DNA of 63,853 nucleotides, filler included, from Licmophora abbreviata (GCA_900291995.1; 14 parts of 14 records of this genome joined end to end with filler, not necessarily neighbours in it); one strand, 5' to 3'; shown: positions 51 through 25,408, numbered from the whole stretch's first letter. Translations and numbers: made by a program. The notes: generated by a model from the letters alone, not told the origin.

Positions 51-1823
51 ATGGCCCGATCCTCTTCAAGACAGTCTGATAAGGATGCACGCCTTGCCCG
101 CCTGACCGCCGGGCTACGGCCGGTGTTCCTGTATATCTTCGGCTTGTCCGGGATCATCAACATCCTGGCACTGACCGGCGCGTTCTACATGATGCAGATC
201 TACGACCGCGCCCTGATGAGTGGCAGCATCCCGACGCTCGCCCTGATCTCGGCGCTGGCACTTGGTCTCTACATGTTTCAGGGCGGGCTTGATGTCATCC
301 GCTCGCAGATCCTTCACCGGGTCGGCGCGCGCTTCGATGCCCGCGTTGCCCCCGATATCCACCGCATGAGCATCGACATGCCGCGCTATGGCTTTTCCGT
401 CGCCGAAGCGATGGAGAGGGGCCGCACCGTCGACACCCTGCGCAACTTCTTCGGCGGACCGGCGCTTGTGTCGCTGTTCGATCTGCCCTGGATGCCGATC
501 TTTCTGGCCTTCGTGTTCGTGCTGCATCCCTATCTGGGCGCTCTGGCCATCGGCGGTGCCGTGGTCCTGACGCTGATGACCGTCCTGACCGAGCTGATGA
601 CCCGCAAGGCGAACGCCCAGGTCAGCCGCGCCGCCGTTCAGCGCAGCTCGGTGGCCGAGGCCAATGCCCGCAACGCGGATGTCATCAAGGCGATGGGGTT
701 CTCGTCGCAGGCTCTGGCCCAGTTCCAGCAGGCCAACGACGCGCACCTGACCCTGCAATCCGGTTCCAGCGACGTGACCCGCACCGTGGGCGCCTTGTCC
801 AAGGTGTTGCGCATGATGCTGCAATCGGCGGTTCTGGGCCTTGGCGCCTATCTCACCATCATGGGCGAGATGACCGCTGGCGCGATCATCGCCGCCTCCG
901 TCGCCTCCGCCCGCGCCCTTGCGCCGATCGACTCGACCATCGCCAATTGGAAGAACCTGATCGCGGCCCGCAACGCCATGGCCACCATCCGTCAGACAAT
1001 GGCCGCCCTGCCTGAACAGGCGCGCCCCCTCCAGATGCCCGATCCCAAGCAGTCGTTCTCGGCCGAAGGGATCACCGTTGTGGCCCCCGGATCCGGGCGT
1101 GTGCTCCTGTCGGATGTGACCATTCAGCTCGAAGCCGGGCAGGCGCTTGGCCTGATCGGTCCCAGTGGCGGCGGTAAATCTTCGCTGATGCGGGCGATGG
1201 CCGGGGTCTGGCCGGTGCTGCGCGGCCATGTCCGCATGGATGGCGCCGATCTTGTGCAATGGGGCGAAGACACGATTTCGCGCAGCTTCGGTTATCTGCC
1301 GCAGGACTACACTCTGTTCGATACCACGATTGCCCGCAACATTTCGCGCCTTGCCGATCCTGATCCCGAAAAGGTCATCGCGGCGGCACGTGCGGCTGGC
1401 GTTCACGAGATGATCCTCGCCATGCCCGACGGCTACGAGACCGAACTGGGCGCCAGTGCCACAAGCCTGTCGGGCGGTCAGCGTCAGCGTATCGCTCTGG
1501 CACGGGCGCTTTATGGCGATCCCTTCGTCGTCCTGCTGGACGAGCCGAATTCGAACCTCGACGCCGAAGGCGAACGCGCCGTCAGCCATGCGATCCAAAG
1601 CATCCGTGATCGCGGCGGCATCGTGATCGTCGTCGCTCACCGCCCAAGTGCTCTGGAGCATGTCGATCTGGTCGGTGTTGTCCAGGATGGCGCCCTCAGC
1701 CGCTTTGGCCCCAAATCCGAGATCATGCGCGTCAAGGCGGCCCCGGTGCCCCCGGCCACGCCCCTCCGTGAAGCAGGCGCCGCCATGAAGGCCGCTCCGG
1801 CACCAGAGGACACAGGCACATGA
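51..1823 (+). CDS. prtD: Type I secretion system ABC transporter (PrtD/AprD family permease-ATPase)
   Basis: N-terminal TM domain with 'YMMQIYDRALMSGSIPTL' and 'LFDLPWMP'; Walker A GPSGGGKS, signature LSGGQRQR, Walker B LLDEPNSNLD; RBS AAGGAG upstream. Confidence 0.93.
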   Translation: MARSSSRQSDKDARLARLTAGLRPVFLYIFGLSGIINILALTGAFYMMQIYDRALMSGSIPTLALISALALGLYMFQGGLDVIRSQILHRVGARFDARVAPDIHRMSIDMPRYGFSVAEAMERGRTVDTLRNFFGGPALVSLFDLPWMPIFLAFVFVLHPYLGALAIGGAVVLTLMTVLTELMTRKANAQVSRAAVQRSSVAEANARNADVIKAMGFSSQALAQFQQANDAHLTLQSGSSDVTRTVGALSKVLRMMLQSAVLGLGAYLTIMGEMTAGAIIAASVASARALAPIDSTIANWKNLIAARNAMATIRQTMAALPEQARPLQMPDPKQSFSAEGITVVAPGSGRVLLSDVTIQLEAGQALGLIGPSGGGKSSLMRAMAGVWPVLRGHVRMDGADLVQWGEDTISRSFGYLPQDYTLFDTTIARNISRLADPDPEKVIAAARAAGVHEMILAMPDGYETELGASATSLSGGQRQRIALARALYGDPFVVLLDEPNSNLDAEGERAVSHAIQSIRDRGGIVIVVAHRPSALEHVDLVGVVQDGALSRFGPKSEIMRVKAAPVPPATPLREAGAAMKAAPAPEDTGT

Positions 1824-2500
1824 TCGAGGTAAAATCAGCCAAGAAGGTCCAGACGCCCGGCAAAGAGCGTCTGGCCGCGATGGACGGCTTGCGCCAGACG
1901 GTGACAGCCATCCCCAAGCGCAAGATCGGTATGGCGATGATGGCCCTTTTCGGTCTGGTCGCCTACATCAAGACCTTGCTCGGCGGCTCCGAGGTTGCAG
2001 CGCAAGCCGCCCCTGACGCACCCATCGCGGGTGACGACGGTGCCGCGCCCATCTGCGAGACGGACAATTCGTCGGCAGACAACAGCGGTCGCATGTCCTA
2101 CGGCAACGCCGCGCTGTTCCAGGCCNNNNNNNNNNNNNNNNNNNNNNNNNNNNNNNNNNNNNNNNNNNNTTAATTAATTAANNNNNNNNNNNNNNNNNNN
2201 NNNNNNNNNNNNNNNNNNNNNNNNNATATCCATCTTGCGCTGTCCGATCTGCACGCGGTGACCGACACGCGCGACATCCGCAAGGACAGCTCGGATTTCG
2301 AGGCCCGGATCTCGGTCTTTGATCCCGAAACCGTGGCCGAAACCCATGGCCGCCCCGGGTTCCGTCAGGATGATGAAGACGCCCTGATGATCCGCCGCAT
2401 CGAACTTCGCCAGGAAAACGAAACCGGCGAAATCGAATTCGACCTCTGGATCAGCGGTCCCGACCGCGAGTCCGATCCCTCTCAAGACTTCACTTCCTGA
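1820..2500 (+). CDS. Hypothetical T1SS-operon protein, split by assembly gap (N-term 1820-2125 with a hydrophobic helix; acidic C-term 2228-2500)
   Basis: ATGA overlap with prtD stop. The frame is open into the gap. After the gap a frame is open from 2228 (IHLALSDLHAVTD...) to TGA 2500, 14 nt before hlyD. That both parts are one gene is inferred. Confidence 0.55.
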
Positions 2501-2514: not shown

Positions 2515-3843
2515 ATGATACGCAACAGCAAAACCCCCAACGCACCGCAGGATGCCGTCTATGCCATTCGCGGGCGGGTGATCGCCGGCCTGGTGATGGC
2601 AACCCTTCTGGTCGCTGCGATCTTTGGCTGGGCGGCGAATGCCAACCTTGCCAGCGCGGTGGTCGTCAGCGGCGAAGTGTCGGTCAACCGCGATCTGCGG
2701 GTCGTCCAGCACCGCGACGGCGGCATCGTCAAAGAGATTCCCGCCAATGTTGGTGACTATGTGCGCGAGGGTGACATCCTGCTCCGGCTTGATGACACAT
2801 CTGCCCGCACCGAACGCGCGATCCTGCACGGCAAAATCGCCGAGCTGGCCATTCGCAAAAGCCGTCTCGAAGCGCAGCGCGACCTGATGGCGGAATTCCA
2901 TATGCCCGCCGGTCTTGATGAATTGATCGTGACGCCCGCGGCACTGCAGGCCATCTATGTCGGCGAGCGCCGCATTTTCCAGGGCAACATCTCGTCCTTC
3001 GTCAGCCGCAAGGAACAGATCGACCTCGGAATCGAACAGGTCCGCACCGAAATCGATGGCCTCGAAGCCCGCCTTGACGCCAAGCAGGACGAAATCCTGC
3101 TGGTGCAGGCCGAAAGCGCCCGCGTCGAAGACCTCTCCGAGCGTCGCCTGACCGTGCGCAATGTCGCCTTCTCGATCGAGCGCGAGAATGTCCGCCTGCG
3201 CGGCGAACGCGGCGAGATCCTATCGGCACTGGGCCGCGCCCGCAGCCGCGTCAGCGAGCTGGAGTTGGAAATCCTCTCGATGCAGGAAACACTGCGCACC
3301 GATGCGCAGCGCGAACTGCGCGAGATCGAAACCCAGCTGTCGGAACTCACCGAAAAGCGTTTCGTCATCGAAGACACCCTGTCGCGCACCGAAATCCGCG
3401 CGCCGATCTCGGGTCTCATCAATGATCTGAACGTCAATTCGGTGGGCGGCGTCATCAGCCCTGCCGAAATTCTGGCGACCATCGTCCCCGAAGAGGCTGA
3501 ACTGGTCTTCACGGCCCGTGTCCCGGCGGTGCAGATCGAACAGGTTAACGCCGGATATGCCGCCCGGATGCGCTTTGTCGCCTTCGACCAGAACGAAACC
3601 CCCGAAATCGAAGGCACCGTGTCCTACGTGGCCGCCGCCGCGACAAGCGATCCCAAGATGCCGGGCGACTTCTACTCGATCAAGGTCGATGTGACGCCCG
3701 ATCAGCTGGCCCGCCTCGGCGGCAAGGAGCTGCGCCCCGGCATGCCGGTCGAAGTCTATGTCACCACGGCCGAACGCACCGCCCTGTCCTATCTCGTCAA
3801 GCCCTTCAGCGATCAGTTCGCGCGGGCCTTCAAGGAAAGGTAA
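2515..3843 (+). CDS. prtE: HlyD-family type I secretion membrane fusion protein (PrtE/AprE)
   Basis: N-terminal TM, 'VVQHRDGGIVKEI', long coiled coil, 'IRAPISG', 'LRPGMPVEVYVTTAERTALSYLVKP'; RBS CAGGAG. Confidence 0.93.
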   Translation: MIRNSKTPNAPQDAVYAIRGRVIAGLVMATLLVAAIFGWAANANLASAVVVSGEVSVNRDLRVVQHRDGGIVKEIPANVGDYVREGDILLRLDDTSARTERAILHGKIAELAIRKSRLEAQRDLMAEFHMPAGLDELIVTPAALQAIYVGERRIFQGNISSFVSRKEQIDLGIEQVRTEIDGLEARLDAKQDEILLVQAESARVEDLSERRLTVRNVAFSIERENVRLRGERGEILSALGRARSRVSELELEILSMQETLRTDAQRELREIETQLSELTEKRFVIEDTLSRTEIRAPISGLINDLNVNSVGGVISPAEILATIVPEEAELVFTARVPAVQIEQVNAGYAARMRFVAFDQNETPEIEGTVSYVAAAATSDPKMPGDFYSIKVDVTPDQLARLGGKELRPGMPVEVYVTTAERTALSYLVKPFSDQFARAFKER

Positions 3844-3847: not shown

Positions 3848-4261
3848 ATGCTCCGCATCTGTCTTTCCGCCCTTGCGATCCTTCTGGCGACCTCCGCCTA
3901 CGGGCAACCCAAGGACATGACCTGGAAGGCGCTCGAGGGCGATACCCTGAACCTCAATGGCAGGATCATGAGTGTTCACGGTGTCTCCTGTCCGCCATCG
4001 TCACAGGCGGCGGGCCTCGGCGCCAAACGGCTCGCGAATACCTTCCTGCGGGGCGGCGTGGTGGTCTGCGTCACGTCGCTTGAACGCAACGGTCGTGAAA
4101 ACGTGGACTGCGCCAAGCGCGGCAACAACGGGCTGTCGCTCAGTCAGATGCTTGTCTTCACCGCACTGTGCACCCCGCGCCGCGATCAGGAATGCATGAC
4201 ACCGCATTTCGACGCCATGCCCACCTACGCGCCGCCACCACGCCGACCCGAAGACGCCTGA
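3848..4261 (+). CDS. Small secreted thermonuclease (SNase)-fold protein, catalytically degenerate
   Basis: Sec-type signal MLRICLSALAILLATSAYG; 'EGDTLNLNGRIMSVHGVSCP...VVC...NGR...C...LSQMLV' resembles the SNase pattern DGDT..IRL.GIDAPE...GR; start 4 nt after prtE stop. Confidence 0.5.
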   Translation: MLRICLSALAILLATSAYGQPKDMTWKALEGDTLNLNGRIMSVHGVSCPPSSQAAGLGAKRLANTFLRGGVVVCVTSLERNGRENVDCAKRGNNGLSLSQMLVFTALCTPRRDQECMTPHFDAMPTYAPPPRRPEDA

Positions 4262-4325: not shown

Positions 4326-6419
4326 ATGGGACGTGACAAACGCAAGGATCGCGATCGCGATACTGAAGACAAATACAAGGGCGAGTTCGAGATCAGGTTC
4401 ACCCAAGACGGGGAGACGCGCAGTCTCACCCTGAAAGGTAGTCCTGCCGACTACGACATTGACTTCGACGATGACGAGCTCGAGATCGAGGCCCGCAAGG
4501 GCGATGCCGAATGGGAATTCGAAGATATCGACAGCTTCGAAATCCTGTCCGCCGCCACGGATGAGGCCTCGTCAGCCCCCGACGGAACCTTCGCCCTCGC
4601 CGGTCCTCTGCGTGACTATGATTTCTTCCTTGAAGACGGGTCTCTGGTTGTCCGCAGCCGCATCGACGGCGAGGTCGAGACCCTTGAAAACGCCACCACG
4701 ATCACCGCTGGCGGCGAGACCTTCCAAACGGCCTTTCTCGTCGACATGCTCGAAACGCCCGGCCCGGATATCCTGGCCGAAGGCGGGCCGCGGCTGATGA
4801 CGGTCAACACACCCGACCCAACCCCAAGTGTGCTGTGGGACCAGATCCTGCAATCTGTCATCGTCGAAACTGGCGGCGGCCCAACCAATGCGGCGCGTGC
4901 CTTCTCGATCATGCACACCGCCATCTATGACGCACAGGCCAGTTATGACCCTGTCGCACAGCGCTTAGCGATCGACCTCGAAGGGGACAACCTCGATATC
5001 GCCAGCCTTGCCGATGCCTCCGGCGCCGAGATTGAAGCCGCCATGCATGTCGCGGCATATCAGACCCTCTCGCAACTCTTTCCCGGCCACCGCGACACGT
5101 TCGACAAGGTGCTGTCCGAACGCGTGGGGATCGACGTTTCGGATGATAGCCGCGCGCATGTGGTCGGCATTGATGCGGCACAGGACGTGCTGACCCCGCG
5201 TCTGGCCGAAGCGGCCGTGCTGGCCAATCTGTCCGACGGGCTTTACACACCGGTCAACCCCGGCCCCGACACACGAAACGACATCTCGCGCTGGACCCCT
5301 GAAAAGCAGGGCAAATTCTCGCCCACTCCAGACGCCCTGCAGACATTCCTGACCCCGGAACGCAGCCTTGCCGAAGGCTTCGCGCTACCCGAAACACCCC
5401 TTGGCTTGACCGACACCGCCCTGATCCGGCCCGATGGACCCGAGCCGTTCTTCACCGCCGATCAGCAGAACGCCGTCCTCGATTTCGACACCGGCACGAT
5501 CACCCTCGCCGCGCCGGTGAACGTCAACGGGCAGACGTGGCAGGCCGGCGATACGATCCCTGTGGACAAATCCCTGATCGGTCCGGTCATCAACCCGACC
5601 TTCATCTCTCAGGCCGAAGCCATCGTTCACACCAGCGCGACCCTGACCGAAGACCAGAAACTGATCGCTGAATTCTGGGAGGACGGCCCCGGCAGCAGCT
5701 ATCCGCCCGGTGCCTGGATGACGCTGGCGCAATATGTCTCTCAACGCGATGCTCATGACGCGGCCTCGGATGCCCTGCTGTTCATGACCATGGGCAACGC
5801 CATGAACGACGCGGCCATCGCGACATGGGACGCCAAGGTGCATTTCGACTATGCCCGCCCGGTCACCGTGATCCGCGACCTTGGCAAGCTCGGCCTGATC
5901 GGCGAACAGGGCGTCGACGAGCTGACCGGTGAGACCGGATATGTGATCCAGGCCTTCGGCGGCATCGACCCCGACACCGGCACCAGTCTCGGCACCCGCA
6001 CGATCCTTGCCGAAAACTTCATCACCTACCAGCTGCCCGGCGGGGAACAATCTCCGCCCTTCGCGGAATATACCTCGGGTCACAGCACGTTCTCGGGCGC
6101 CGGTTCTGCGGTGCTTGCCGCCTTCACCGGCTCCGATCACTTTGACGCGCAAGTCACGGTTGCCTCAGGCACCAGTGCCTTCGATGCCGCGCTGCCGACC
6201 CAGACATACCTCTTCGAATGGGACACGTTCTCGCAGGCCGCCAACGACGCTGGCTTCTCGCGGATCTATGGCGGGATTCACTTCAGCGACGGTAATCTCG
6301 ACGGGCTCGGCTCCGGTGCCAAGATCGGCTCGGATGCCTATGACCTTGCCTCCGAGTTCGCCAACGGCACAGCGCAGCCCGAACAGCAGCCCTTCTTCGA
6401 CGAATTTCTGTTCGGATGA
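4326..6419 (+). CDS. Vanadium-dependent haloperoxidase (PAP2 superfamily) with acidic N-terminal extension
   Basis: Three vanadate-site motifs: KVHFDYARP (Kx6RP), PPFAEYTSGHS, SRIYGGIHFSDG; also bacterial VHPO-type 'GPTNAARAFSIMHTAIYDA' and 'AEFWEDGPG'; no signal peptide. Confidence 0.88.
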   Translation: MGRDKRKDRDRDTEDKYKGEFEIRFTQDGETRSLTLKGSPADYDIDFDDDELEIEARKGDAEWEFEDIDSFEILSAATDEASSAPDGTFALAGPLRDYDFFLEDGSLVVRSRIDGEVETLENATTITAGGETFQTAFLVDMLETPGPDILAEGGPRLMTVNTPDPTPSVLWDQILQSVIVETGGGPTNAARAFSIMHTAIYDAQASYDPVAQRLAIDLEGDNLDIASLADASGAEIEAAMHVAAYQTLSQLFPGHRDTFDKVLSERVGIDVSDDSRAHVVGIDAAQDVLTPRLAEAAVLANLSDGLYTPVNPGPDTRNDISRWTPEKQGKFSPTPDALQTFLTPERSLAEGFALPETPLGLTDTALIRPDGPEPFFTADQQNAVLDFDTGTITLAAPVNVNGQTWQAGDTIPVDKSLIGPVINPTFISQAEAIVHTSATLTEDQKLIAEFWEDGPGSSYPPGAWMTLAQYVSQRDAHDAASDALLFMTMGNAMNDAAIATWDAKVHFDYARPVTVIRDLGKLGLIGEQGVDELTGETGYVIQAFGGIDPDTGTSLGTRTILAENFITYQLPGGEQSPPFAEYTSGHSTFSGAGSAVLAAFTGSDHFDAQVTVASGTSAFDAALPTQTYLFEWDTFSQAANDAGFSRIYGGIHFSDGNLDGLGSGAKIGSDAYDLASEFANGTAQPEQQPFFDEFLFG

Positions 6420-6442: not shown

Positions 6443-7327
6443 TCAGGCGAAAGCATTCTGGTCCGGTCGCCCGATCGGCATCCACAGCACTTGCGTGCGA
6501 TCCGCATCCAGGCGGTAATCGCACTGCGCGCGCGCGGCCATATGCTCCAGGATGTCGCGGGCCAGTCTCATCCGTTCGAACGGGCCGGTTGCGGCGCAGG
6601 TCGCATCCGCATCAGCGGTCTTTTCGCCCGCCTGAGCAACCGTCACCCATACCCCGGTCTGCCCGCGCCTGCCTTGCCCATGGCCAAACGTCACACGGGT
6701 TGTCTGTCCCTGGTCTGACATGCGGGCGATTTCCAGCATCGAGAACAACAATTGCATCAGCGTTTCGCTCTCCACTGCACTCAGCTCAACGGGCTGCCCG
6801 TCATGGCCGATATCAAGCCGTTGGCCGCAGGTTGTGAACATGAACCCAAAGCGCCGCCCTGCCTCTTCGGCACAGCCCGCAAGATCCGATGTCCCCGCCG
6901 CCGACAGCTTTGCGCCCGCCTCGAGCGTGCTGAAGGCCACCACGCGGTCCACTCGCAATTGCATCCAGTGCAACGCATCCTGTCGCATCCCATCCAGACT
7001 TTCATGCAGCAGCGGATCATCCCGCGACGCCATGGCAATACCCTGCAAGGCATTCAGCGGATTCCTCAGATCGTCGCTCACCATGTCCAGAAATCGCAGT
7101 TTGATTGCGTTCGACCGTTGCAGCGGCCGGATCAGCAGCCAATAGAACACAGGCGCCATGATGCAGAACAGCAGCACTGCATCCAGTATCGCCTCGCCCC
7201 ATATTGTCTCTGTCAGCCAGGGCATCCGCTGCTCGAGCCTGGCCAAGGCCAGCATGATGCCCAATTCCGCGCCCGCCAGAGTGATCAGGACAATCACGAC
7301 CTTCCCAAGCGAGTCATCGCGAAACAT
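6443..7327 (-). CDS. Membrane-bound histidine-kinase-like protein lacking the phospho-His (pseudokinase)
   Basis: Two TM helices, then 'KLRFLDMVSDDLRNPLNAL' (H-box SH[DE]LRxPL with His as Asp); downstream HATPase-like region lacks recognisable N and G boxes. The ORF could extend to 7360. Confidence 0.7.
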   Translation of the reverse strand: MFRDDSLGKVVIVLITLAGAELGIMLALARLEQRMPWLTETIWGEAILDAVLLFCIMAPVFYWLLIRPLQRSNAIKLRFLDMVSDDLRNPLNALQGIAMASRDDPLLHESLDGMRQDALHWMQLRVDRVVAFSTLEAGAKLSAAGTSDLAGCAEEAGRRFGFMFTTCGQRLDIGHDGQPVELSAVESETLMQLLFSMLEIARMSDQGQTTRVTFGHGQGRRGQTGVWVTVAQAGEKTADADATCAATGPFERMRLARDILEHMAARAQCDYRLDADRTQVLWMPIGRPDQNAFA

Positions 7328-7731
7328 GGTCAGACCCTGCCGACCGGGCAAACCATGCAAGCGGCGCGCGCCATGTGCGCTGTCCGCTCGACGCAGGCAT
7401 CAGCCAGGATCGGCGGCATTGCGAAGGCACATCTGTCATGCATGGGTATCAAGGCCCCTGTGCGATGGTGTCGTCAGCACATCTGTTTCGTTCAGACAGC
7501 CACCATNNNNNNNNNNNNNNNNNNNNNNNNNNNNNNNNNNNNNNNNNNNNTTAATTAATTAANNNNNNNNNNNNNNNNNNNNNNNNNNNNNNNNNNNNNN
7601 NNNNNNCAAGGCCCCTGTGCGATGGTGTCGTCAGCACATCTGTTTCGTTCAGACAGCCACCATGCTGCGAATCGAACACACCGGACTTCGGGGATATCAC
7701 AAAGCGCCCCAACCGCCGCTACCCCGGACTA

Positions 7732-7838
7732 GGACCAAAGTCCAAACTCTTGCTCGACCAAGGGTCTCGGCGGTGTCTTTAGGTCGAACGCCCGGGTCTT
7801 GCGAGACCATTGTCGCAGATCACGTCGGACCATTATCC
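7732..7838. promoter_or_regulatory. Cluster of GAC-N4-GTC-type operator boxes in the divergent pseudokinase/regulator intergenic region
   Basis: GGACCAAAGTCC 7732-7743, CGACCAAGGGTC 7755-7766, AGACCATTGTCG 7804-7815, GGACCATTATCC 7827-7838. Confidence 0.55.
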
Positions 7839-8139: not shown

Positions 8140-8772
8140 ATGTATAGAACGATGGTGATTTGCGATCACGCCTCTACGCGTGCCGGTTTCGAACATTTGA
8201 TATCTTCCTGCGAGTCCTTTGACTTGCAATGTGCGACTGCCTTCACACCCGAAATTCTCGACACATGCGCCCGCGACAAGGTCGACGTGGTGATTGTGGA
8301 TCTCGGATCGTTGGATCAGCCGATGAAAACCCTGCGCGCGTTCCGCAAATCAAGCGAGACCATGCGCATCTTGGCTTACTGCTCGGAAAAAGGCATCGAC
8401 ACAGCGGTCGAAGCCTTGGATGCGGGGGCATCCGGCATCCTGACCTACACAAGCGAACTAACCGATCTGTGCATGGCAGTGCGTCGCGTCATGAATGGCG
8501 ATAACTACGTGCAGCCCGATATGGCGATGGATATCTTCGCCAAGCTGCGTCAGGCCGAAGCCAAGCGCAAAGAGGCCGAGCGCCTGCGCCTGACCGCCCG
8601 CGAAAGCCAGGTGGTCCGCCATCTGATGCAGGGCATGACCAACGGTCAGATCTCGGTCGAGCTCAACATCAGCGAGAAAACCGTCAAGCACTATGTCGGC
8701 TCTCTCAAGGACAAGTTCGGTGCAGCCAACCGCCTCGAGGTGGTTCTGGAAGCGCAGCGTCTCGGGGTCTGA
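8140..8772 (+). CDS. NarL/LuxR-family response regulator with atypical receiver domain
   Basis: C-terminal LuxR HTH 'LTARESQVVRHLMQGMTNGQISVELNISEKTVKHY'; receiver fold keeps 'VVIVDL' Asp but has VICDH, LAYC and GASGILTY at the acidic-pair, Thr/Ser and Lys positions. Confidence 0.9.
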   Translation: MYRTMVICDHASTRAGFEHLISSCESFDLQCATAFTPEILDTCARDKVDVVIVDLGSLDQPMKTLRAFRKSSETMRILAYCSEKGIDTAVEALDAGASGILTYTSELTDLCMAVRRVMNGDNYVQPDMAMDIFAKLRQAEAKRKEAERLRLTARESQVVRHLMQGMTNGQISVELNISEKTVKHYVGSLKDKFGAANRLEVVLEAQRLGV

Positions 8773-14912: not shown

Positions 14913-14996
14913 TACAGCCTCGCGCCGCGACCAATGCCGCCCCGACCGGCGGTATGTGGGGCCGATTCTCTGATGCCTGCACCCTCCCGGCCTATC

Positions 14997-15150: not shown

Positions 15151-18100
15151 ATGGTTTTCGTCAACACAAACGACCTGAAGCACATCCTCGACCAGATCCG
15201 CATCGCTGAACAGCATGTGGCCGGTACACCCTTGACCGATCTGGTGGCGAATCCCCTGCTGCCCTACGGCCTGCGTCTGGTCGATGGCACGTTGAACAAC
15301 CTGACCGAAGGCCGCGAGGACTGGGGCTCGGCGGATCAGGTCATGCCGCGCCTGCTCCAGTCAACCTTCCTCACCCAACCCGAGTCGGCGCATCTGGCAG
15401 ATGCCAGCCCGCGCGCCCCGCAAGACGGACCCACGTCCTATCTTCAGACCTCCGGGTCGGTCTATGATGCCGAGCCTCGGGTGATTTCGAACCTGATTGC
15501 CGATCAGACCCTCGCCAACCCCGCCGTCATCGCCGCAGCGCTCAGCCATTCCGGTCTGACCGGTCAGGCGATGCTTTCGGCTGCCAACGAAATCGTTCAG
15601 GCTTATCAGCGCGTCATCGATGCGCAGGCCGCCACCGGCAATGTCGATCAGGCGCTTGAACTGCAGCGCCAGCAACTGCAGTCCGCTCTGGACACCGCCA
15701 GCGCCGAACTGACCGCCGCACAGAACGATGTCTCCGCCAAGACAACGGCCAAGGCTGACGCCGATCTGGCCGTGACCGACGCCAAGGCCGCTTTGGATAC
15801 GGCCGCCGCGACAATGGTTGCCCTGCAAAGCGCCGGTCAGGTGGGCGAGGCTCAGGCCGCGCTGACAGCCNNNNNNNNNNNNNNNNNNNNNNNNNNNNNN
15901 NNNNNNNNNNNNNNTTAATTAATTAANNNNNNNNNNNNNNNNNNNNNNNNNNNNNNNNNNNNNNNNNNNNAACGCCCTCGATGCCGCGCAGGCCGAGCTG
16001 GACGCCGCCAACGCATCCGCCGCCTCGATGCTGACCATGCACGGCGCCAAGCAGACCGAAGTCACCAACCTGCAAAGCCAGAAGGCGACCGCCGATCAGG
16101 CGCTTGCCTCGGCTCAGTCCACCCTGTCCGACGCTGAGGCGGCACTGGCACTGGAAACCGACGCCGCAGGCGCGGTGACTGAGGCTCAAACGGCGGTTGA
16201 TAACGCCACCACCGCAGTCAGCGAAGCGCAAGCGCGTGTGGACGACCTCGACGCACAGCTCGAGCAGGCGCAGACTGACCTCGACGATCTGACCACCCAG
16301 CTTCAGACCGCGCAGCAGGCCGAGACCGCCGCACAAGCCCGCGTCAACGCCGCTCAGGAAGCCGCCGCTGAAACCCAGATCGCCCGCGACAACGCCCAGT
16401 CCCTCTTCGACACCGAAGTGACCGAGCTTGCCACCGCGCAGGCCGATATGCTCAGCGCCCTCTCGACCTATCTCAATGGCGGATCGCTGGCCGACTTCTC
16501 CGTCGCGTCCGCGGCCTATTCCAAGGCCCGCGAGGAAAAGCTGGCCGCAGAAATGGCTCTCGCTGACGCGATCGACGCGGATGATGGCGCCGATCAGACG
16601 GTTCTGACCGAAAATGCCGCCCTCTCCACGGCGAAGTCTCAGGTCACTAGCCTGACTCAGCAGCGTGATACTGCGATCACCACGCGTGATGGGCTGAACA
16701 CCCAGCTGGGCGAAGCCAACACCGCCCTGTCCACGGCGCAAGCCACCCTCGAAACCGCCCAGCAGGATCTTCAGACCGCACAGGCGGACAATCAGGCTTA
16801 CGTCGATGCGCAGAACGCCGTCACGCAGGCGCAGGACGGCGTCAACACGGCACAAGGCGTGGTCGATGGTTTTGTGACCCAGCTCGCCACCGTCAACGCC
16901 GAGCTTGCAACGCTGAACACCAATGTTGAAAACGCCGATGCCGAAGTCACCCGCCTCGAAGGCGTCGTTCAGACCGAAACCGGCGATCTGACCATCGCGC
17001 AAGATGGCGTCGACTCGGCCCAGCAAACACTGGCAGCAGCCCAGACGGCCGATGCGCAGATCCTCGCGCAGCTCGATGTGATCGCCGATGCAACCCTCAC
17101 GCTCAACCAGGCGACTGAAACTGCCGCTCAGGCAGCCCTCGATCTGACCGCGGCAGAAGGTGTTGAAGCTGCCAAGCAGACCGCGGTCGACACCGCCACA
17201 AGCGACCTCGACGCCCTGACCGCACCCGGCGCGGCCGAAGCCGCTCTGGCCGCCGCTCAGGCCACCGCTGCCGAGGCGCAAACCGCCCTCGACACGCTGC
17301 TGACCACCCATGACATCACCATGGACGGCAACAACGTGCTGCTGCCGGATGTGTCTCCTGATGAAGGCCTGACCGCGCCCTACAACTCCTGGATGACCCT
17401 CTTCGGTCAGTTCTTCGATCACGGCCTCGATCTGGTCGGCAAAGGGGGCAGCGGCACCGTCTACATCCCGCTGCAGCCCGATGACCCGCTCTATGTCGAA
17501 GGCTCGCCCACCAACTTCATGGTGCTGACCCGCGCCACCAACCAGCCCGGACCGGATGGCATTCTGGGCACGGACGATGACGTGCGCGAGCATTTCAACA
17601 AGACGACACCTTGGGTCGACCAGAACCAGACCTACACCTCGCACCCCTCGCATCAGGTGTTCCTGCGCGAATACGATCTCGACGCCAACGGAAACCCGGT
17701 CTCCAACGGCTACCTGCTGCATGGCCAGACCGGCGGCATGTCCACATGGGGCGACGTCAAGGCGCAGGCCGCGACCAAGCTGGGCATTCAGCTCAATGAT
17801 AGCGACGTGCTCGATGGCCCGCTGCTGGCCACCGATCCCTACGGCAACTTCATCCCCGGCCCCAACGGCCTGCCGCAGCTGGTCGTGCCGAACCCCGCCT
17901 ATGTCGAAGGCGGCACCGAGCCTTTGAATATCCTGATCGAAGGCGATCTGGCCAACCCCGTCGATGCAAGCCAGGCGCTTCGTAACGGTCACGCCTTCCT
18001 CGAAGACATTGCCCATAACGCGTTCCCCAAGGGCATGATCGACCACGATCGCAACCCGATGACACCCGAAATCGAGGTCGCGCCCGATGCCGATACCGAC

Positions 18101-21100
18101 ACCGGCAACGCGATCATCCCCAACCAGTTCGGCCAAAACGAAACCTACGACAACGAGTTGCTGGACCGTCACTTCATCGCCGGCGATGGCCGTGGCAATG
18201 AAAACTTCGGCCTGACGGCGGTGCACCACGTGTTCCACACCGAACACAACCGCCAGACAACCGAGATGAAACAGACTATCCTCGACAGTGGCGAGCTGGC
18301 GTTCATCAACGAATGGCTGGCCACCCCGATCACCGAGGCCGATCTGGCAACCGCGACTGTGAACACCGTCGAATGGGATGGCGGGCGTCTGTTCCAGGCC
18401 GCCAAGTTCACCACCGAGATGCAGTATCAGCACCTCGCCTTCGAAGAGTTCGGCCGCACCGTGCAGCCCCAGATCGCGGCGTTCATGGCAAATGCCAGTG
18501 CCGAGATCGACGGATCGATCATGGCGGAATTCGCCCATGTGGTGTACCGCTTCGGTCACTCGATGCTGACCGAGAACGTTCACACGATGGACCCCAACGG
18601 CGTGAACACCTCGAACGGTCTGATCGAAGCCTTCCTGAACCCGGTCGCCTTCGACCTTGACCAGACCCTGACCTCGGATCAGGCGGCAGGTGCCGTGGCC
18701 CGTGGCATGTCCCGCGAAACCGGCGCCAATATCGACGAGTTCATCACCAGCGCCCTGCGCGACAACCTCGTTGGCCTGCCTCTGGACCTTGCCGCGCTGA
18801 ACATCGCGCGGGGTCGGGAAACCGGTGTGCCCTCGCTCAACACCGCCCGCGAGCAGTTCTACTCCGCCACCGGCAGCGAGTTCCTCAAGCCCTATGAAGG
18901 CTGGTCGGAATTTGCCGCGAACCTCAAGAACCCGGCTTCCATCATCAACTTCATCGCGTCCTACGGCACCCACGAGACCATCGTGAACGCCACGACCGTG
19001 GTGGAAAAGCGCGCTGCGGCCACAGATCTGGTTCTCGGCGGTGACACTGCCCCGGCGGACCGTCTGGACTTCGTCAACGGCACCGGCGCCTGGGCTGCGG
19101 TCGAAACGGGGATCAACGCTGTCGAGTTCTGGATCGGCGGTCTGGCCGAGGCGATCATGCCCTTCGGCGGGATGCTCGGCTCCAGTTTCGGCTTCGTGTT
19201 CCAGCAGCAGATGGAGGCGCTGCAGAACGGCGACCGCTTCTACTACCTGGCCCGGACAGCCGGCATGAACATGCTGGCCGAGCTGGAGAACAACTCCTTC
19301 GCCTCCATGATCGTGCGCAACACCGACATCCAGGAAGGCGGCGCGCATATCCCGGCCAACATCTTCTCGTCGATGGATGTCATCCTCGAAGTGGATCAGG
19401 CCGTGCAATCCATGCCCGACCCGGTGTCCACCGATGTCGATCCGTTCCTTGCCGCCATGGGCACCACCATGGTCGAAAGGGCCACGGCCACGGTCGATGC
19501 GCCTCTCACCGATGGCGCGCGGGACTATGACAACTTCCTCAAGTTCAATGGCGGCGAGCATGCCTTGCTCGGTGGTACGGACCAGCGCGATATCCTCATT
19601 GGCGGCCTCGGCGACGATGCGCTCTGGGGCGGCGCGGGTGACGACCTTCTGATCGGTGGCGCTGGCGTGAACACGTTCCGTGGCGGTGCCGGCAACGACA
19701 TCATCAGGGATGGTGACGATATCAGCTTCCTGCATGGCGAAGACGGCGACGACGTGATCTCGGCTGGCGGCGGCATCGGTGAACTGATGTTCGGCGGCAA
19801 GGGCAATGACGCCATCCTCATGGGCTTCGACGACGCAGCCGAAGCGTTCGGCATGGACGGCAACGACTTCATCTACGGTGGCGCCGGTGCCGAGATCATG
19901 TTCGGCGGCGAAGGCGACGACTGGATCGAAGGCGGCGACGGCTTCGATATGCTCCTGGGCGACAACGGCGATCCCTTTGGCGGGTCGCGGGTTGTGGGCC
20001 ATGACGTGCTGAATGGCGGTGCCAACGACAACGACCTGCTTGGGGAAGGTGGCGATGACATCCTGATCCAGGGCGAGGGCGTGCATGTCAACGATGGTGA
20101 TCTCGGACATGACTGGGTGGCCCACAAGAATGCGATGACAGGGGCCGATATCGACCTCAGCCGTCGTCTGGAAACCAACGAAGCACTGGACGCGATCCGC
20201 GATCGCTACAACCTGATCGAGGCGGCATCGGGCACGCAGTTCGACGATTTCCTCTACGGCGATGACCGCGAAGGTGCGGCACTGCCGGCCGGGATCGACC
20301 TGCTGGCCAATGATGCGACGCTCTTCGCCAACGAACTGACGCAGGCGGGCGTTGACCGGATCGCAGGGCTGCGCGAGTTGCTGGGCGACATGATGGGCGT
20401 TGACCCCGCAGATACCTTCACCGGCGGCAACATCCTGCTCGGTGGCGGCGGCAGCGACGTGATCCAGGGCCGCGGCGGCGATGACGTGATCGACGGCGAC
20501 AAGGCGCTCAACGTGCGCATCTCGGTCCGCGATCCTCAGGATCCGACCGTGGAACTGCGCTCGATCAACAGCCTGTTCGAAATCTCGAACGAGCTGCTCG
20601 ACGGCTCCATCAGCCCGGGCCAGCTGCAGATCGTGCGGGAAATCCTCGACGCCGGTCAGGAAGGCGATGTGGACACCGCCGTCTACTTTGATGTGCGGGC
20701 CAACTACAACATCCGCCAGAACGCCGATGGCAGCGTCACGGTCGATCATATCTCACCGCCCATCGAAGGCGCGTTCATCGATCCGATCAACGGTCAGCCC
20801 AACGTCGCCGGTGGTGACGGAACTGACCGCTTGACCAATGTCGAAATCCTGCGCTTTGCGGATATGGAGGTTGATCTTCGCACCGATCCGGCCAGCAATG
20901 GCTTGATCCAGGGCACCGATGGCAACGATGTGCTCGACGGCAGCAACGGCCCCGACGCGATCTTCGCAGGCGCCGGTGACGATGTGATCAACGGTCTTGC
21001 CGGCAATGACGTGATCTTCGCCGAAGGTGGCTCCGACACGATCACATGGAACGCGCCCAACGGCGGCTACGATGTGGTCGTGGGTCACGGGATCGTCAAC

Positions 21101-24100
21101 GACGGTGGCACCGACATGCTGGTGATCAACGGCGACGGCACCGAGGAAGGCTTCACCATGTATACGGTCGCGGCATGGGCCGATGCAGGCGGTGCAGCCC
21201 CGGCGGATGCACTCTCCGAGATCATCATCACCCGGACAGTGGCCGGTGCGGAAACCGCGATCATGGAAGTGCGCGGCATCGAGGAGGTCGCAATCAACGG
21301 GGTGCAGGGTGTTGAAACCATCACGGCAGTGGGTGACTTCGCAGGCACCTCGCTGGCGCCCAACACGATCTACGTGAACGGCACGGCGGGTCGCGAAGTG
21401 ATCGACTTCTCCGGCTTCACCTCGACCCAGCGTCTTGTGGTGGATGCAGGCGACGGTCGTGACGTCATCACCGGCGGTGCAGGCAATGACATCCTGAACG
21501 CCGGTGCGGGCCGCGACGAAATCACCTGGAGTGTCGGCGGCGGCAGCGATGTGGTCGACGGCGGCGCAGACGAAGACACCTACATCATCAACGGCGATGC
21601 ATCTGATGAAACCTTCCGCGTCTATGCGGCGGACTCCTGGACAGGGGCACCCCTGGCCACCGGCACCGACATCGTCATCACCCGCGACGCGGGCACCGGC
21701 GAACAGGTGATCGGTCAGCTTCAGAACATCGAGGAAATCCAGATCAACACCGCAGGAGGCACGAACGACGTGCAAGTTATCGGTGACTTCAACCCGACAG
21801 CTCTCAACTTCAACACCATCAGTGTGACTGGCGAAGTTGCCAATGTGGATGTCACGGGCCGTCTTTCGACGCACCGCGTGTTCGTCGAAACCGAAAGCCG
21901 CGCCACCACGGTGACCGGCATCCTGACCGAAGGCGACGTGATCGTCGTCCCGGTGGATATCGACCCGGCCACTCTGGAAACGACCCGTTCGACTGACGGG
22001 CTGACCGTCACGCAGACCTCGGGCGACTTCACGCTGAGCTTCACGGTCGATGATGTGGACACGCTTCCGATCGTCGTGCAGTCCGGCAGCGGCCTGGCCA
22101 ACGCCCTGCGCGATGTGGCGACCATCAACGAGCAAACCGGCGCACCTCAGGGCATGGGAACGGTCGCTCTCGGCACCCTGCCGCGTGGCAATGTCCTGCT
22201 CACCGGCGATGATCTGGCCGCGTTGAAATACATGATCACCGGTCAGGGCGAAGCGCCTGTCCTTCCGCCCGAAGCGGGTGAGCCTGCGGACGACGAACCG
22301 GCTGATCTGATCGTCGGTGTCCGCGATCTCGAAGGTCTCACCAATAACCTGCAGAACCCCGAGATTTCGGGTGGCGCGACCCTGCCGTTTGCCCGTGTGA
22401 CCGACGCCCGCTACGGCGTCGACACCGACACCGGCAGCAGTGTCGGTATGGACGGCGCAGGTATCGTCAACCCGGTGTTCGCCGATCTCGACGCCCGCGA
22501 CATCTCGAACGCCCTCGGCGCTCAGGATGCGGATGCGGCCAAGGCGGCGACGGCCAACATGTTCATGATGTCCTTCGGTCAGTATTTCGACCACGGCCTG
22601 ACGTTCATCCCCAAAGGCGGCCATGCCCCGATCGCGATCGGCGACATGGGCGTGGACCGGATATTGGGCAACCCGGTTGACCTCAACCGTGCCACGGCCA
22701 CGGTCAATCCCGACACCGGCGAGATCGAGCATACCAACATCACCTCGCCCGTGGTCGATCAGAACCAGGTCTACGGCTCGTCCAACCTGGTGGGTCAGCT
22801 CCTGCGCGAAAGCGGTGAAAATGGCGGCTTCGGTGCCCATGTCCTGATGGGTCAGGAAGATCCCTCGGCCCCCGGCTTCAAGCTGATGGCCACACTGCGG
22901 GAACTGCTGGATCACCATACCAATGCCGGTACGGTCTTTACCGGAACCGACAAGGGCGATGTCACCCTCGAAGGGTACTACCCGGATCTGTTCAACGATG
23001 ACGGCACCTACAACGCCGCAACCATCAAGGAACTCTCCGGCGACTTCATGGGGGAAGGCTGGCCGCTCCTGATCGACACCAACCCGTTCATGAACCTGCT
23101 CGACCACTTCGTCGGCGGCGACGGGCGTGCGAACGAAAACGTGGGCCTCACCTCGATGCACACCGTCTGGGCGCGCAACCACAACTACCACGTGGATCAG
23201 CTTCTGGCGGCGGGCTACGCAGCCGACACCACCGAAGAGCTGTTCCAGGCCGCGCGTATCCTGAACATCGGGGAATATCAGCAGGTCGTGTTCAACGACT
23301 TCGCCGATAGCCTTCTGGGCGGGTTGCAAGGCTCGGGCCGTCACGGTCATGACAAGTATGACCCGACAACCGATGCCCGCATCAGCCACGAGTTCGCGGC
23401 GGCGGCCTATCGCTTCGGCCACTCGCAGATCGGTGAGACGATGACTCTCAAGACGCAGGACGCCGATGGCAACACCATCACCGTCGATGCGGACCTGTTC
23501 GATCTGTTCCTGAACCCGACCAACGATCCGAACGCGTTCACCGTGCCGCTTCCCCACGGGTATGTGCCGCAACCGGGCTATGCCCAGTACGGTGTCGCCA
23601 ACATCCTTGGTGGTCTGGTGGAACAGCCCTCCGAAGAGGTTGACCTGCAGGTGGTGGATGCCGTCCGCAACGACCTCGTGCGCAGCCCCGCCGATCTCTT
23701 CGCCTTCAACGTCGCTCGCGGCAGGGATCTGGGCCTCGGCACGCTCAATCAGGTCAAGGCCGATCTGGCGGCGTCCGGCAACCTCTACATCTCGGAAGCG
23801 ATCGAGCTGTCGGACATGGCCATGACACCCTACACCGACTGGGCCGATTTCCAGACGCGCAACGGGCTGTCGGACGACATGATCGCCAAGTTCGAGCAAG
23901 CCTACCCGGAGCTCATCCTGGAAGTCCCTTCGGACGAATACAACGCCTTCGTCGCGGCCAACCCCGATATCGCGATGATCGACAATGGCAATGGCACGAT
24001 GACCGTCAAAGGCATCGACCGTGTCGACCTCTGGGTCGGTGGCCTGGCCGAGCAGCACATTCAGGATGGTGTTGTCGGTCATACCTTCTGGGTGCTCATC

Positions 24101-25408
24101 CACGAGCAGCTCGACCGCCTGCAGGAAGGCGACCGGTTCTACTACACCGACCGGATCGGCGATCTGCCCGTCTACAACAACTTCATCTCCAACCTCACCT
24201 TCGGGGATATCGTGACCCGCAACACCGGGATGACCGATCTGCCGCTGGATGTGTTCAGCTATAACGGAGATCAGGCGGTTGAAGACAATGCACCCAACAC
24301 CAACCAGACCAACACCGATCCGGTGACCACCAACCAGACCAACACCGATCCGGTGACCACCAACCAGGAGACCATCGACACGACCAACACCGGTCAGACA
24401 CCGGAAACCGAACCGACGACAACACAGGAGACCGCAACCCAGACGACCGAGGATAACAGCGCCCAACAGCCTCAGGGCGGCGCGTCCAACGAGACCGAAA
24501 CCGAAACCAACGAGGATATGTCCCAGGGCACCGACACCACGCTCGAAAACCAGGAATCCGAAGTCGAAACCGAGACACCGGCTTCGGACCCCTCGGCCGG
24601 GCAGAGCCCCTACGGCCCGGTCGAGGGTATCGTAGAAAGCGGTACCGAAATGGGCGATGCCCTTGTCGGCGCGGCGGGTGACGATGTCCTCAGCGGGTAT
24701 GACGGCAACGACATGCTCGTGGGCAATGCCGGTGACGACATGCTCTTCGGTGGCGATGGCCGCGACGACATGCTCGGTGGCGAAGGCAATGACATGCTCG
24801 TGGGCGGCGCCGGCAGCGACAATATCCTTGGCGGCGACGGCGATGACGTGATCATCGGCGGGTCCGGCTCGGATATCCTGATGGGCAATGCCGGTGACGA
24901 CACCTTCATCGGCACGGACGGCGACTGCAACGACCTCATCTACGGTGGCGAAGGGTCCGACACGATCGACATGGCGTCGGTCACGTCCAACCTCACGGTG
25001 CGCCTCGGCAATGCCGGGACGGATCGTGGCTCGATCACCACGGCAGAGGGCGGTCGCGACACGATCTGGAGCATCGAGAACTTCGTCGGTGGCGCAGGCG
25101 ACGACACCATCTTCGCCAGCGACGCGGCCAACGTGCTCGATGGCGGTGACGGCAACGACACCTTCGTGTTCGAAACCGCGGCCAGCGCGGAGGGCGATCA
25201 CATCAACGGCCTCTCCGCTGGCGATGTCCTGCAGTTCGGCACAGGGGCGGGTGCGGTCACGATCTCCTCGCGGGATCAGGCCATCGACGCCGGCTTCGCG
25301 GTCGAGCATGACGCCGCCAACGACGTCTCGACGATCAGTGGCAGCCTCGACGACGACAGCTTCGAACTGACCGTCAGCGGCCGCTTCGACTACGAAAACC
25401 TCGCCTGA
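15151..25408 (+). CDS. Giant RTX protein with two animal-type (peroxidase-cyclooxygenase) heme peroxidase domains, MopA/PepA-like; >=3,385 aa, split by gap 15871-15970
   Basis: RBS CAGGAG; family N-terminus 'DLKHILDQIRIAEQH...LPYGLRLVDGTLNNL'. Domain 1: GQFFDHG (17405), GDGRGNE, RFGHS, NIARGR. Domain 2: GQYFDHG (22577), GDGRANE, RFGHS, NVARGR. Several GGxGxD nonapeptide blocks; no signal peptide. Confidence 0.92.
24298..24367 (+). repeat. 30-bp perfect tandem repeat (about 2.3 copies) in a Thr/Asn/Gln/Glu-rich linker
   Basis: CAACCAGACCAACACCGATCCGGTGACCAC x2 plus partial copy, encoding TNQTNTDPVT. Confidence 0.95.

Follow-up and report, generated by a model that had tools for sequence, protein, structure and literature searches.

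The subject of this report is a gene locus at positions 51 to 25,408 of a window of 63,853 nt (the whole stretch of DNA that was analysed), which consists of 14 records, joined end to end with filler, of a genome catalogued under Licmophora abbreviata (GCA_900291995.1). The locus encodes a type I secretion system (T1SS), a vanadium haloperoxidase (VHPO)-like protein, a pair of regulatory proteins, a second 5-aminolevulinate synthase (ALAS), a pump of the resistance-nodulation-division (RND) type with its membrane fusion protein (MFP), and a giant RTX protein with two heme peroxidase domains. It is a real, contiguous accessory locus of a marine Roseovarius-type bacterium, and its conserved core is formed by the peroxidase, the PrtD-type T1SS, the VHPO-like protein and the regulators. 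The nearest genome compared, G001, has 91-96% DNA identity over the locus; statements about whole genomes refer to G001 and other relatives, rather than to the window's own genome. An earlier, first-pass annotation of the window had described the same genes as a single system, and its claims are taken up with the results that bear on them.

The left-hand end of the locus is a row of genes on the plus strand, beginning with a PrtD-type T1SS ABC permease/ATPase (51..1823; TIGR01842, 628.9 bits against a cut-off of 510.15; Pfam ABC_membrane and ABC_tran). The second gene encodes an RTX protein, present in the window as an N-terminal part with one predicted membrane helix (1820..2125, plus strand) and a C-terminal part (2228..2500, plus strand) whose translation matches the end of the 622-aa G001 orthologue (L011:11425-13293), a protein with HemolysinCabind repeats for which the ESM Atlas returned nothing besides RTX. 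Assignment of the reading frame at 1820 to an HlyD protein was rejected, as comparison with this orthologue identifies it as the N-terminus of the RTX protein. The HlyD-family T1SS periplasmic adaptor is instead encoded by the third gene (2515..3843, plus strand; TIGR01843, 311.1 bits against a cut-off of 208.65; Pfam HlyD_3 and HlyD_D23), and the prtD/prtE designation in the first-pass annotation therefore stands, both proteins being above curated cut-offs. No TolC-like outer-membrane channel is encoded at the locus. PrtDEF/AprDEF systems, which secrete serralysin-like proteases and lipases, resemble this row in having an ABC protein of the same PrtD subfamily, without an N-terminal peptidase domain, together with an HlyD adaptor and RTX cargo alongside; the locus differs from them in the RTX protein with a membrane helix between ABC protein and adaptor, in the lack of an outer-membrane gene and in having redox enzymes as its cargo.

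The fourth gene of the row (3848..4261, plus strand), absent from the earlier gene list, lies directly before the VHPO gene in a conserved position and encodes 137 aa with an N-terminal hydrophobic, signal-like segment and several invariant cysteines. It was found at the same place, 68-99% identical and with 74 invariant columns, in the seven records with a match (L011/L015, L016-L021). Searches of Pfam and NCBIfam gave no match to the protein; its nearest named ESM Atlas clusters, with a score of 0.92 that is to be treated as a lead only, are thermonuclease-like, and it may possibly belong with these. An AF2 model built with six orthologues had a mean pLDDT of 40.4 and was unusable. The open reading frames (ORFs) at 8969-9226 and 3758-4261 likewise matched nothing in Pfam or NCBIfam. 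The row is compact: in G001 the ABC and RTX genes overlap by 4 nt, and the gaps that follow, up to the VHPO gene at its end, are of 14, 4 and ~67 nt.

The VHPO-like protein (4326..6419, plus strand) is 697 aa long, with an acidic N-terminal extension of ~150 aa and a C-terminal end that is acidic, then hydrophobic. It matches Pfam VCPO_2nd (32.1 bits against a cut-off of 27) and DUF6851, and the twelve chains matched among solved structures, with E values from 1.7e-18 to 8e-6, are all VHPO or NapH proteins. The K-x6-RP, SGH and R...H motifs, which we take to be the vanadate-site residues, all align with those of the solved VHPO 9ptr. As the first-pass annotation had proposed, the protein appears to be a VHPO without a signal, since its N-terminus is highly charged and lacks any hydrophobic stretch or signal peptide and its best structural matches are solved VHPOs; the N-terminal 191 aa had no match in Pfam or NCBIfam. 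The acidic N-terminal module is found tandemly duplicated at L019:3163-3504 and in residues 1-125 of protein P0011, from a record named for Roseobacter sp. AzwK-3b. Solved bacterial VHPOs (9ptr, 9l8x, the Zobellia enzyme 4cit and NapH1/NapH3) share with the locus protein an alignable C-terminal helical bundle and the vanadate motifs, to which the clade of the locus adds the acidic N-terminal extension and T1SS-type C-termini or RTX fusions.

The assignment to haloperoxidases has to be weighed against the common active-site motifs of VHPOs and PAP2 acid phosphatases, by which a phosphatase is possible from the sequence. The protein might then be a secreted PAP2-type acid phosphatase serving phosphate scavenging: K-x6-RP, SGH and R...H occur in both enzyme classes, and PF01569 (PAP2) is found in four of the five database relatives (47-53% identity) that carry a third Pfam family. 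This alternative is nevertheless improbable, because all of the best solved relatives are VHPOs, the VCPO_2nd match is above its cut-off and the linkage to an enzyme that uses H2O2 is conserved.

The last and largest gene of the locus (15151..25408, plus strand) encodes a giant peroxidase of the MopA/AHP type, matching PF03098 at 412.9 bits and, over 11 stretches, PF00353 at 156.9 bits. The layout seen in the 3414-aa G001 orthologue is a coiled-coil N-terminus, a first An_peroxidase domain, an RTX block, a second An_peroxidase domain and, at the C-terminus, an RTX block, which is the giant RTX protein with two heme peroxidase domains of the first-pass annotation, now with both domains mapped and an RTX block behind each. 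Alignment to lactoperoxidase (8s6c) indicated that the distal, Arg/Glu and proximal-His motifs (GQxFDH, GDxRxNE and YRFGH) are kept in both domains. The gene is interrupted by a linker (15871-15970); a start at 16028 was rejected, as the G001 orthologue places the beginning of the ORF at 15151.

Two regulatory genes lie between the VHPO gene and the peroxidase. The first, on the minus strand (6443..7360), encodes a HisKA-like protein without an ATPase domain, in which only Pfam HisKA (31.5 bits) was matched and which has an aspartate at what we take, from the usual H-box consensus, to be the position of the phospho-acceptor histidine. The second (8140..8772, plus strand) encodes a LuxR/NarL-type response regulator with a GerE domain (63 bits) and a marginal receiver domain (Response_reg, 30.6 bits against a cut-off of 30.2); by an unaligned consensus, this receiver presumably has its aspartate at the acceptor position, and its first acidic residue and lysine appear to be replaced. 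The description of these genes as a pseudo two-component pair is apt, yet a complete HAMP-HisKA-HATPase kinase and a receiver-only protein are encoded just left of the window's counterpart in G001, and these two accompany the locus in every arrangement described below.

Between the LuxR gene and the peroxidase lie three further genes. The gene hemA' (9138..10520, plus strand, interrupted by the linker at 9228-9327) encodes a second ALAS (TIGR01821, 613.8 bits against a cut-off of 338.55). Compared with the contigs of each of the four sequencing runs examined (X2-X5, which may be the source of this DNA and are not independent of the window), the window has two surplus nucleotides at 10393, at the 3' end of hemA', and is short of one at ~11297, in the MFP gene; both are probably errors of the draft assembly. 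No RNA run was among the 24 runs listed for contig 2. The profile match of the ALAS ends at 366 of 402 positions because of the surplus at 10393, and in the corrected frame hemA' stops at 10520, 30 nt before the MFP start. The MFP gene (10552..11777, plus strand) encodes an RND-type periplasmic adaptor, for which HlyD_D23 and HlyD_3 were matched in the G001 orthologue; it spans two frames in the window, owing to the frameshift at ~11297, and is intact in G001, L019 and L095. The ORF at 10599-11777 was rejected as a representation of this protein, its first 236 residues being an out-of-frame artefact. Overlapping the MFP gene by 4 nt is the gene for an RND inner-membrane pump (11774..14912, plus strand; 1019 aa in G001), which is interrupted by the linker at 13572-13671 and matches ACR_tran over profile positions 8-594 and 656-1019.

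The window contains 13 linkers of the form N44-TTAATTAATTAA-N44 (the first at 2126-2225, the last at 62740-62839) and is thus a pseudomolecule of 14 draft contigs, the linker being of the six-frame-stop kind with which such contigs are joined. What had been annotated as one 25-kb block consists of six of them (1-2125, 2226-7506, 7607-9227, 9328-13571, 13672-15870 and 15971-26283), albeit in an order that matches both G001 and a single contig from another strain. The gaps near 7.5 and 9.2 kb had been thought closable from the sequence itself: at the former, between contigs 2 and 3, the ends share an exact overlap of 57 nt, while the latter is among the four of the five junctions within the locus at which comparison of contig ends in the window found no overlap. 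The other three gaps fall inside genes, as had been claimed, with ~1289 nt missing from the RTX protein gene, ~23 nt from the RND gene and ~29 nt from the peroxidase gene relative to G001. Elsewhere in the window, the junction at 42.2 kb has an exact overlap of 24 nt.

The 9.2-kb gap coincides with the 5' boundary of a two-copy hemA repeat. In G001 the body of hemA forms a separate contig of 1031 nt (C30) between C12, which corresponds to window contigs 1-3 plus the first 137 nt of contig 4, at which it stops, and C17, which corresponds to the rest of contig 4 and contigs 5-7; C30 is entered by C12 and C7 and left by C17 and C5. Similarly, in run X3, from the window's strain, a hemA piece of 1166 nt has a depth of 36.6 compared to 16.9-18.7 in its flanks, again with two contigs leading in and two leading out. 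As two contigs enter the repeat and two leave it, short reads cannot join contig 3 to contig 4, and this link in the window's own strain is beyond their reach, which counts against the contiguity of the locus. Together with the 13 linkers and the lack of overlap at four of the five junctions, the unresolved repeat would be expected had unrelated draft contigs been joined artefactually into a block.

Such an artefact is very improbable, because every junction is colinear with G001 and the critical part is spanned by a single contig. The latter, L019 (14,658 nt, from another Roseovarius), contains the genes for the RTX protein, HlyD, VHPO, HisKA, LuxR, ALAS, MFP and RND and the start of the peroxidase, in this order. 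In L021, L022 and L177 the LuxR gene is followed by hemA', and contig 4 of the window, like the contigs of four runs, leads from hemA' into the MFP-RND genes and onward; contigs of 6.9-13.7 kb in all four runs begin at 10466 and extend past 13571. The second route through the repeat, C7/C5, is the context of the housekeeping hemA, with an M20 peptidase and a hydrolase on one side and RodZ-like and IspG proteins on the other, an arrangement that in L026 and L030 is unbroken, with just one hemA inside it, and that in L036 is so in part. With the housekeeping gene placed there, the path from C12 through hemA' to C17 follows by elimination. The linkage called well supported in the first-pass annotation is accordingly secured by G001, L019 and the elimination of C7/C5, and not by the window alone. 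Colinearity with G001 extends to the rest of the window, so the order of its linker-joined contigs looks like that of a scaffold rather than an arbitrary one.

Related loci fall into four arrangements. In type A (the window, G001, L019, L020/L095, L021, L107 and L109), the ABC-RTX-HlyD-small gene-VHPO row is followed by the HisKA-like gene on the minus strand, the LuxR gene, hemA'-MFP-RND and the peroxidase. Type B (L016, L017 and L018, from three genera) begins with the peroxidase and the kinase gene on the minus strand, followed by the genes from ABC through to LuxR, with no hemA, MFP or RND gene found within 17 kb. In type C (G170) the order is LuxR-kinase-receiver-peroxidase-ABC-RTX-HlyD-VHPO, and in type D (G207) the VHPO gene lies ~520 nt after the peroxidase, LuxR-kinase-receiver occupies the opposite strand, and ABC and HlyD come next. 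The ABC protein is 95-99% identical in types A and B and 72-74% in types C and D, and the 622-aa RTX protein separates ABC from HlyD in types A, B and C. LuxR orthologues are present in all four arrangements, beside the full kinase and the receiver-only protein in types C and D; the HisKA-like gene is found in types A and B, as a remnant in L021, and had no match in L020 or in types C and D. Among the eight closest VHPO loci (70-92% identity), T1SS genes and regulators were found wherever the contigs reach.

The core is also mobile. The type B loci of L016, L017 and L018 are 99.4-99.9% identical over at least 14.5 kb, with transposase genes on both sides, and this near-identity in three genera points to a recent transfer of the block. 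When L094, L096 and L097 are included, the 24-kb island comprising peroxidase, T1SS and VHPO is 99.4-100% identical and bracketed by rve, Mutator and DDE_3 transposase genes. Seven kilobases from a type B island, L094:7651-10881 encodes a protein of 1076 aa in which RTX repeats are combined with a Hint_2 domain. Of 101 genomes sampled within the genus, the VHPO query matched three, consistent with the locus being accessory.

The ABC row and the peroxidase gene share an upstream motif. A perfect 20-bp palindrome, TATCGGACCTTGGTCTGATA, lies at 14993..15012, so that the distance to the peroxidase start downstream is 158 nt from its 5' end and ~148 nt from its centre. No second site of this kind occurs in the window (the one site is listed on both strands), where chance would give 0.02, and its position weight matrix (PWM) score of 29.7 bits compares with at most 19.6 in 20 shuffles. 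A counterpart precedes the ABC gene in G001, ~125 nt upstream of what corresponds to the window's first base. The core of the palindrome, GACYWWRGTC, occurs 29 times in the 395,484 nt of 21 loci, 18 of them no more than 300 nt upstream of the start of a peroxidase or ABC gene. All 12 peroxidase starts have it, 11 times at -143 to -150, as do five of seven ABC starts; the misses are the window, which begins too late to include the site, and type C, in which the ABC gene comes directly after the peroxidase. The other occurrences comprise six in the spacer between the HisKA-like and LuxR genes, one between the LuxR and kinase genes of type C, and four at other places. The spacer copy in the window (GACCAAAGTC, core 7733-7742, within 7728..7747) has a PWM score of 11.4 at 7733, which by itself is within the shuffle range, and is found at the matching place in all six loci with the spacer; the PWM hits at 6697, 7724 and 7796 were each within the shuffle range and were discarded, only that at 7733 being conserved. 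A near-copy with one mismatch, GACCTTGGTA (9029..9038), lies ~109 nt upstream of hemA' and has the second-best PWM score in the window (13.6). The same sequence occurs in five of five type A loci, 142 nt before the codons of a cysteine motif in the hemA' leader. These findings bear out the shared promoter motif reported in the first-pass annotation, with the qualification that the ABC copy is outside the window, and the conservation of the palindrome at peroxidase and ABC starts supports co-regulation. Most likely the palindrome serves as operator for the LuxR-type regulator, which is encoded in every arrangement.

Comparison with its relatives suggests how the VHPO-like protein leaves the cell. 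In 15 of the 79 loci that encode members of its clade, the protein has a C-terminal tail of 150-240 aa with two or more GGxGxD motifs, and these are RTX fusions; in nearly all members the sequence closes with an acidic residue and then hydrophobic ones. PF00353 was found in five of 60 database relatives, some of which are named "calcium-binding protein" by their source. The window's own protein has no RTX repeats. Its position as the last gene of a tight T1SS row, the lack of a signal peptide, the RTX-fused relatives and the form of the C-termini together indicate that it is probably exported by the T1SS. This goes some way towards the co-export of VHPO and peroxidase that had been claimed, by an indirect route. 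The same pattern suggests that the whole clade, found in alphaproteobacteria and cyanobacteria, may be an unrecognised class of T1SS-secreted haloperoxidases. In L037, a VHPO relative of 47% identity adjoins an HlyD (34%) and an ABC (41%) gene of its own on the opposite strand, a pairing of VHPO and T1SS outside the peroxidase island. A search of a plasmid collection returned only VHPO paralogues of less than 50% identity.

Taken as a whole, the locus is somewhat favoured to be a system of two layers. The first would be the horizontally mobile core, in which the palindrome switches the ABC unit and the peroxidase together through the LuxR-type regulator; both enzymes would leave through the T1SS in an unfolded state and become mature outside the cell, where superoxide and H2O2 would be formed or turned over by the peroxidase, in line with what is reported of this enzyme type from a related Mn-oxidising strain. 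The VHPO would use this H2O2 with halide from seawater, thereby removing peroxide that blocks net Mn oxidation, producing hypohalous acid, or both. In the second layer, the hemA'-MFP-RND row, inserted before the peroxidase, would raise tetrapyrrole synthesis and pump heme or porphyrin out of the cell to load the apo-peroxidase. That the locus is a real, linked, conserved and co-regulated module is highly probable; the coupling of peroxidase and VHPO through H2O2 and halide is given rather less than an even chance. From the gene content and its conservation we infer the secretion of the VHPO, the identity of the site-binding regulator, the H2O2/halide coupling and the substrate of the pump, and the roles in halogenation, Mn oxidation, biofilm defence and cofactor supply would be of the same kind. 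A more elaborate version, in which one operator governs an extracellular redox factory that exports apo-peroxidase and cofactor-free VHPO, pumps heme or porphyrin, from extra tetrapyrrole synthesis, out to the peroxidase, feeds the superoxide and H2O2 of the latter to the VHPO for conversion of seawater halide to hypohalous acid and would act both as the peroxide sink of Mn oxidation and as a bacterial counterpart of the algal bromoform locus, with the entire VHPO clade secreted by T1SSs, is speculative and, as a whole, unlikely.

The association of VHPO and peroxidase was assessed in a family sample of 401 genomes, one per genus, in which the VHPO query matched 10 and the peroxidase-domain query 18. 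Five genomes had a VHPO of at least 55% identity, and four of these (G001, G146, G170 and G207) also had a peroxidase of at least 83%; in three of the four the matched parts are 6-14 kb apart on one contig, and in G001 they lie on either side of the hemA break. The expectation that the genes co-occur in other genomes was thereby confirmed by the neighbourhood search for the core, which recurs in four gene orders, and not for hemA', MFP and RND, which were found only in the Roseovarius-type arrangement.

Several findings weigh against reading the core as one functional unit. The loci compared are related or transferred, so that these counts do not represent independent events. Of the seven genomes whose peroxidase reaches at least 83% identity, three, namely G036 (99% complete), G129 (91%) and G249 (86%), had no VHPO match at E<=1e-40, and the peroxidase can thus exist without the VHPO. 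Conversely, G059 has a 60% VHPO on contig ends and no peroxidase match, and VHPO relatives at 41-52% identity are mostly without peroxidase and T1SS neighbours. The PWM scan of the window gave no palindrome immediately before the VHPO gene, so co-regulation of the VHPO would rest on read-through from the ABC promoter, which fits a row of five genes that overlap or lie 4 to ~67 nt apart.

These observations could be accommodated if VHPO and peroxidase merely shared an exporter, as independent cargoes of one T1SS that travel together with the island and are not chemically coupled. T1SS loci often adjoin the genes of their substrates, the island in three genera reflects one recent transfer and hence a single event, and the VHPO clade is widespread without the peroxidase, which itself lacks a VHPO match in the three genomes just named. 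Against this, the pair has been kept through at least four rearrangements, including that of G207, where the VHPO gene lies behind the peroxidase and away from the T1SS genes; both enzymes use H2O2; and the shared operator covers both units. Shared export without coupling is therefore considered an unlikely account of the core, and the two-layer interpretation is retained.

The second layer requires separate consideration, as the genes concerned are present at the locus (TIGR01821 and ACR_tran) and are not part of its conserved core, a distinction not made when the ALA synthase and RND pump were first annotated as components of the system. The body of hemA' (9328-10495, 1168 nt) is identical to the housekeeping hemA in the window's strain, and the identical tract has the same boundaries in G001, while the gene has diverged by ~4% between the two species. 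Identity within genomes, divergence between species and the same boundaries in both point to gene conversion between paralogues that are older than the species split, and not to a fresh duplication. On this comparison of sequences, hemA and hemA' are a clear-cut example of concerted evolution in which the boundaries of conversion are fixed. Beyond these boundaries hemA' has its own last few codons, its own promoter region and its own leader, which adds ~20 residues with the motif CSGCLGC and is conserved in the window, G001, L019, L021 and L022. A scan for the leader motif gave 20 matches, of which five precede an ALAS; these five are without exception from Roseovarius records and lie downstream of the LuxR gene of the locus. 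On C3, G001 has yet another ALAS gene, its third, with 67% DNA identity. Duplicated ALA synthases are known as hemA and hemT in Rhodobacter sphaeroides; that case is alike in the presence of a second ALAS in one genome, and the one described here is distinguished by a body identical over 1168 nt and by the efflux pump close behind it.

The pump is, from its sequence, an RND protein of no named subfamily, remaining below every NCBIfam subfamily cut-off (the best being NF033617, 349.5 bits against 1250). Close orthologues (80-100% identity) were found in four of 64 loci and in L019, always in the order MFP-RND-peroxidase, and the next best matches were of at most 37% over long stretches, a gap that may be overstated as the scan finds close relatives best. 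Cargo of a T1SS crosses the envelope unfolded, and a secreted heme enzyme consequently needs heme outside the cell. Given also the close spacing of hemA' and the pump genes, the shared site and the exclusive neighbourhood of the peroxidase, it is plausible that hemA', MFP and RND act as a supply of heme or porphyrin to the secreted peroxidase; export of heme or porphyrin by the pump itself is held tentatively, and is on balance doubtful. The pump's failure to reach any subfamily cut-off counts against this reading, as does the restriction of hemA'-MFP-RND to the Roseovarius-type arrangement, since the core works without these genes in three of the four arrangements.

The same facts could be explained if hemA' were a by-product of recombination at the housekeeping hemA, with the pump serving to expel the products of hypohalous acid, halogenated organics or surplus porphyrin. 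Identity of the hemA' body to the housekeeping gene is what recombination would predict, and three arrangements function with neither hemA' nor pump. In L026, L030 and L036, moreover, only 3.2 kb separate the housekeeping hemA from a VHPO paralogue, with no peroxidase there. What such a by-product would leave unexplained is the conserved leader, together with the operator-like near-copy whose distance is constant in five of five loci, the spacing of only 30 nt between the hemA' stop and the MFP start, the occurrence of close pump orthologues solely beside the peroxidase and the need for heme outside the cell that follows from unfolded export. We regard the by-product explanation as possible and rather doubtful, and keep cofactor supply as the working interpretation of the second layer. 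The VHPO paralogue of L026, L030 and L036 (46-50% identity) directly follows the M20 peptidase and hydrolase genes, forming an independent VHPO-hemA neighbourhood, which may explain how hemA' was recruited. A precedent for tetrapyrrole export exists in Escherichia coli, where the tripartite MacAB-TolC pump exports protoporphyrin (PMC4263509); that pump is of the ABC type and serves detoxification, with no link to secreted heme enzymes in the portion of that report available, whereas that of the locus is an RND pump.

Giant secreted heme peroxidases have been proposed as the engines of superoxide-driven Mn oxidation in marine bacteria of the Roseobacter group. In the available parts of the relevant reports, the MopA/AHP proteins, or 'long peroxicins', are described as very large extracellular proteins in which hemolysin-type calcium-binding repeats accompany one or two heme peroxidase domains of animal type (PMC6247904, PMC6328764, bioRxiv 10.1101/2022.11.10.515945), found in culture supernatants and linked to superoxide-driven Mn oxidation (PMC6328764, PMC6247904). 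Members of this type are known from Aurantimonas manganoxydans and Erythrobacter sp. SD-21 (MopA), Pseudomonas putida GB-1 (MopA/PepA) and Roseobacter sp. AzwK-3b (AHPs); the protein of the locus, with its two domains and two RTX blocks, resembles them. These papers, in the same parts, treat the peroxidase alone, whereas here it belongs to a mobile set with a T1SS, a VHPO-like protein, regulators and a shared operator.

Two questions raised in this field, as far as the accessible text of its reports goes, are how H2O2 is removed (PMC3760088) and where the extracellular cofactor and reductant come from (PMC6328764). Net Mn oxidation driven by superoxide was found to need the removal of H2O2, and the authors, in the section available, pointed to an unidentified enzymatic peroxide sink (PMC3760088). 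The locus offers genetic candidates for both, in that the co-regulated VHPO-like enzyme, if co-secreted, is a candidate for such a sink, and the dedicated hemA copy with its efflux pump could bear on the cofactor. A record named Roseobacter sp. AzwK-3b contains two VHPO orthologues, of 73% identity to the window's and 90% to the L016 type, which would make these ideas testable in an established Mn oxidiser. If a T1SS-secreted clade of VHPOs does exist, it would also be relevant to the sites at which halogenated compounds are produced in the sea.

The nearest known pairing of a peroxide source with a peroxide-using halogenase is the mbb locus of the alga Asparagopsis taxiformis, in which vanadium bromoperoxidase genes are clustered with an NADPH oxidase (NOX) gene (PMC12115072). 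The likeness is one of functional analogy only: as described in the accessible part of that report, the mbb locus is eukaryotic, has a NOX rather than an animal-type peroxidase, includes no secretion system or heme-supply genes and is unrelated by descent. The literature searched contained no report in which a vanadium haloperoxidase was connected to type I secretion, RTX or AzwK-3b, which suggests that the set has not been described there as a unit.

To the right of the peroxidase, from a gene at 25525-26241 on the minus strand onward, the genes look like housekeeping genes (encoding in G001 a tRNA pseudouridine synthase and YcjX-like, GNAT and DUF697 proteins), and these mark the right-hand end of the locus. 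Further along, at 28798-29731 in contig 8 of the window, ~950 nt match C8 of G001 (92%) between flanks that match C17, and this segment may be a small insertion or mobile element.

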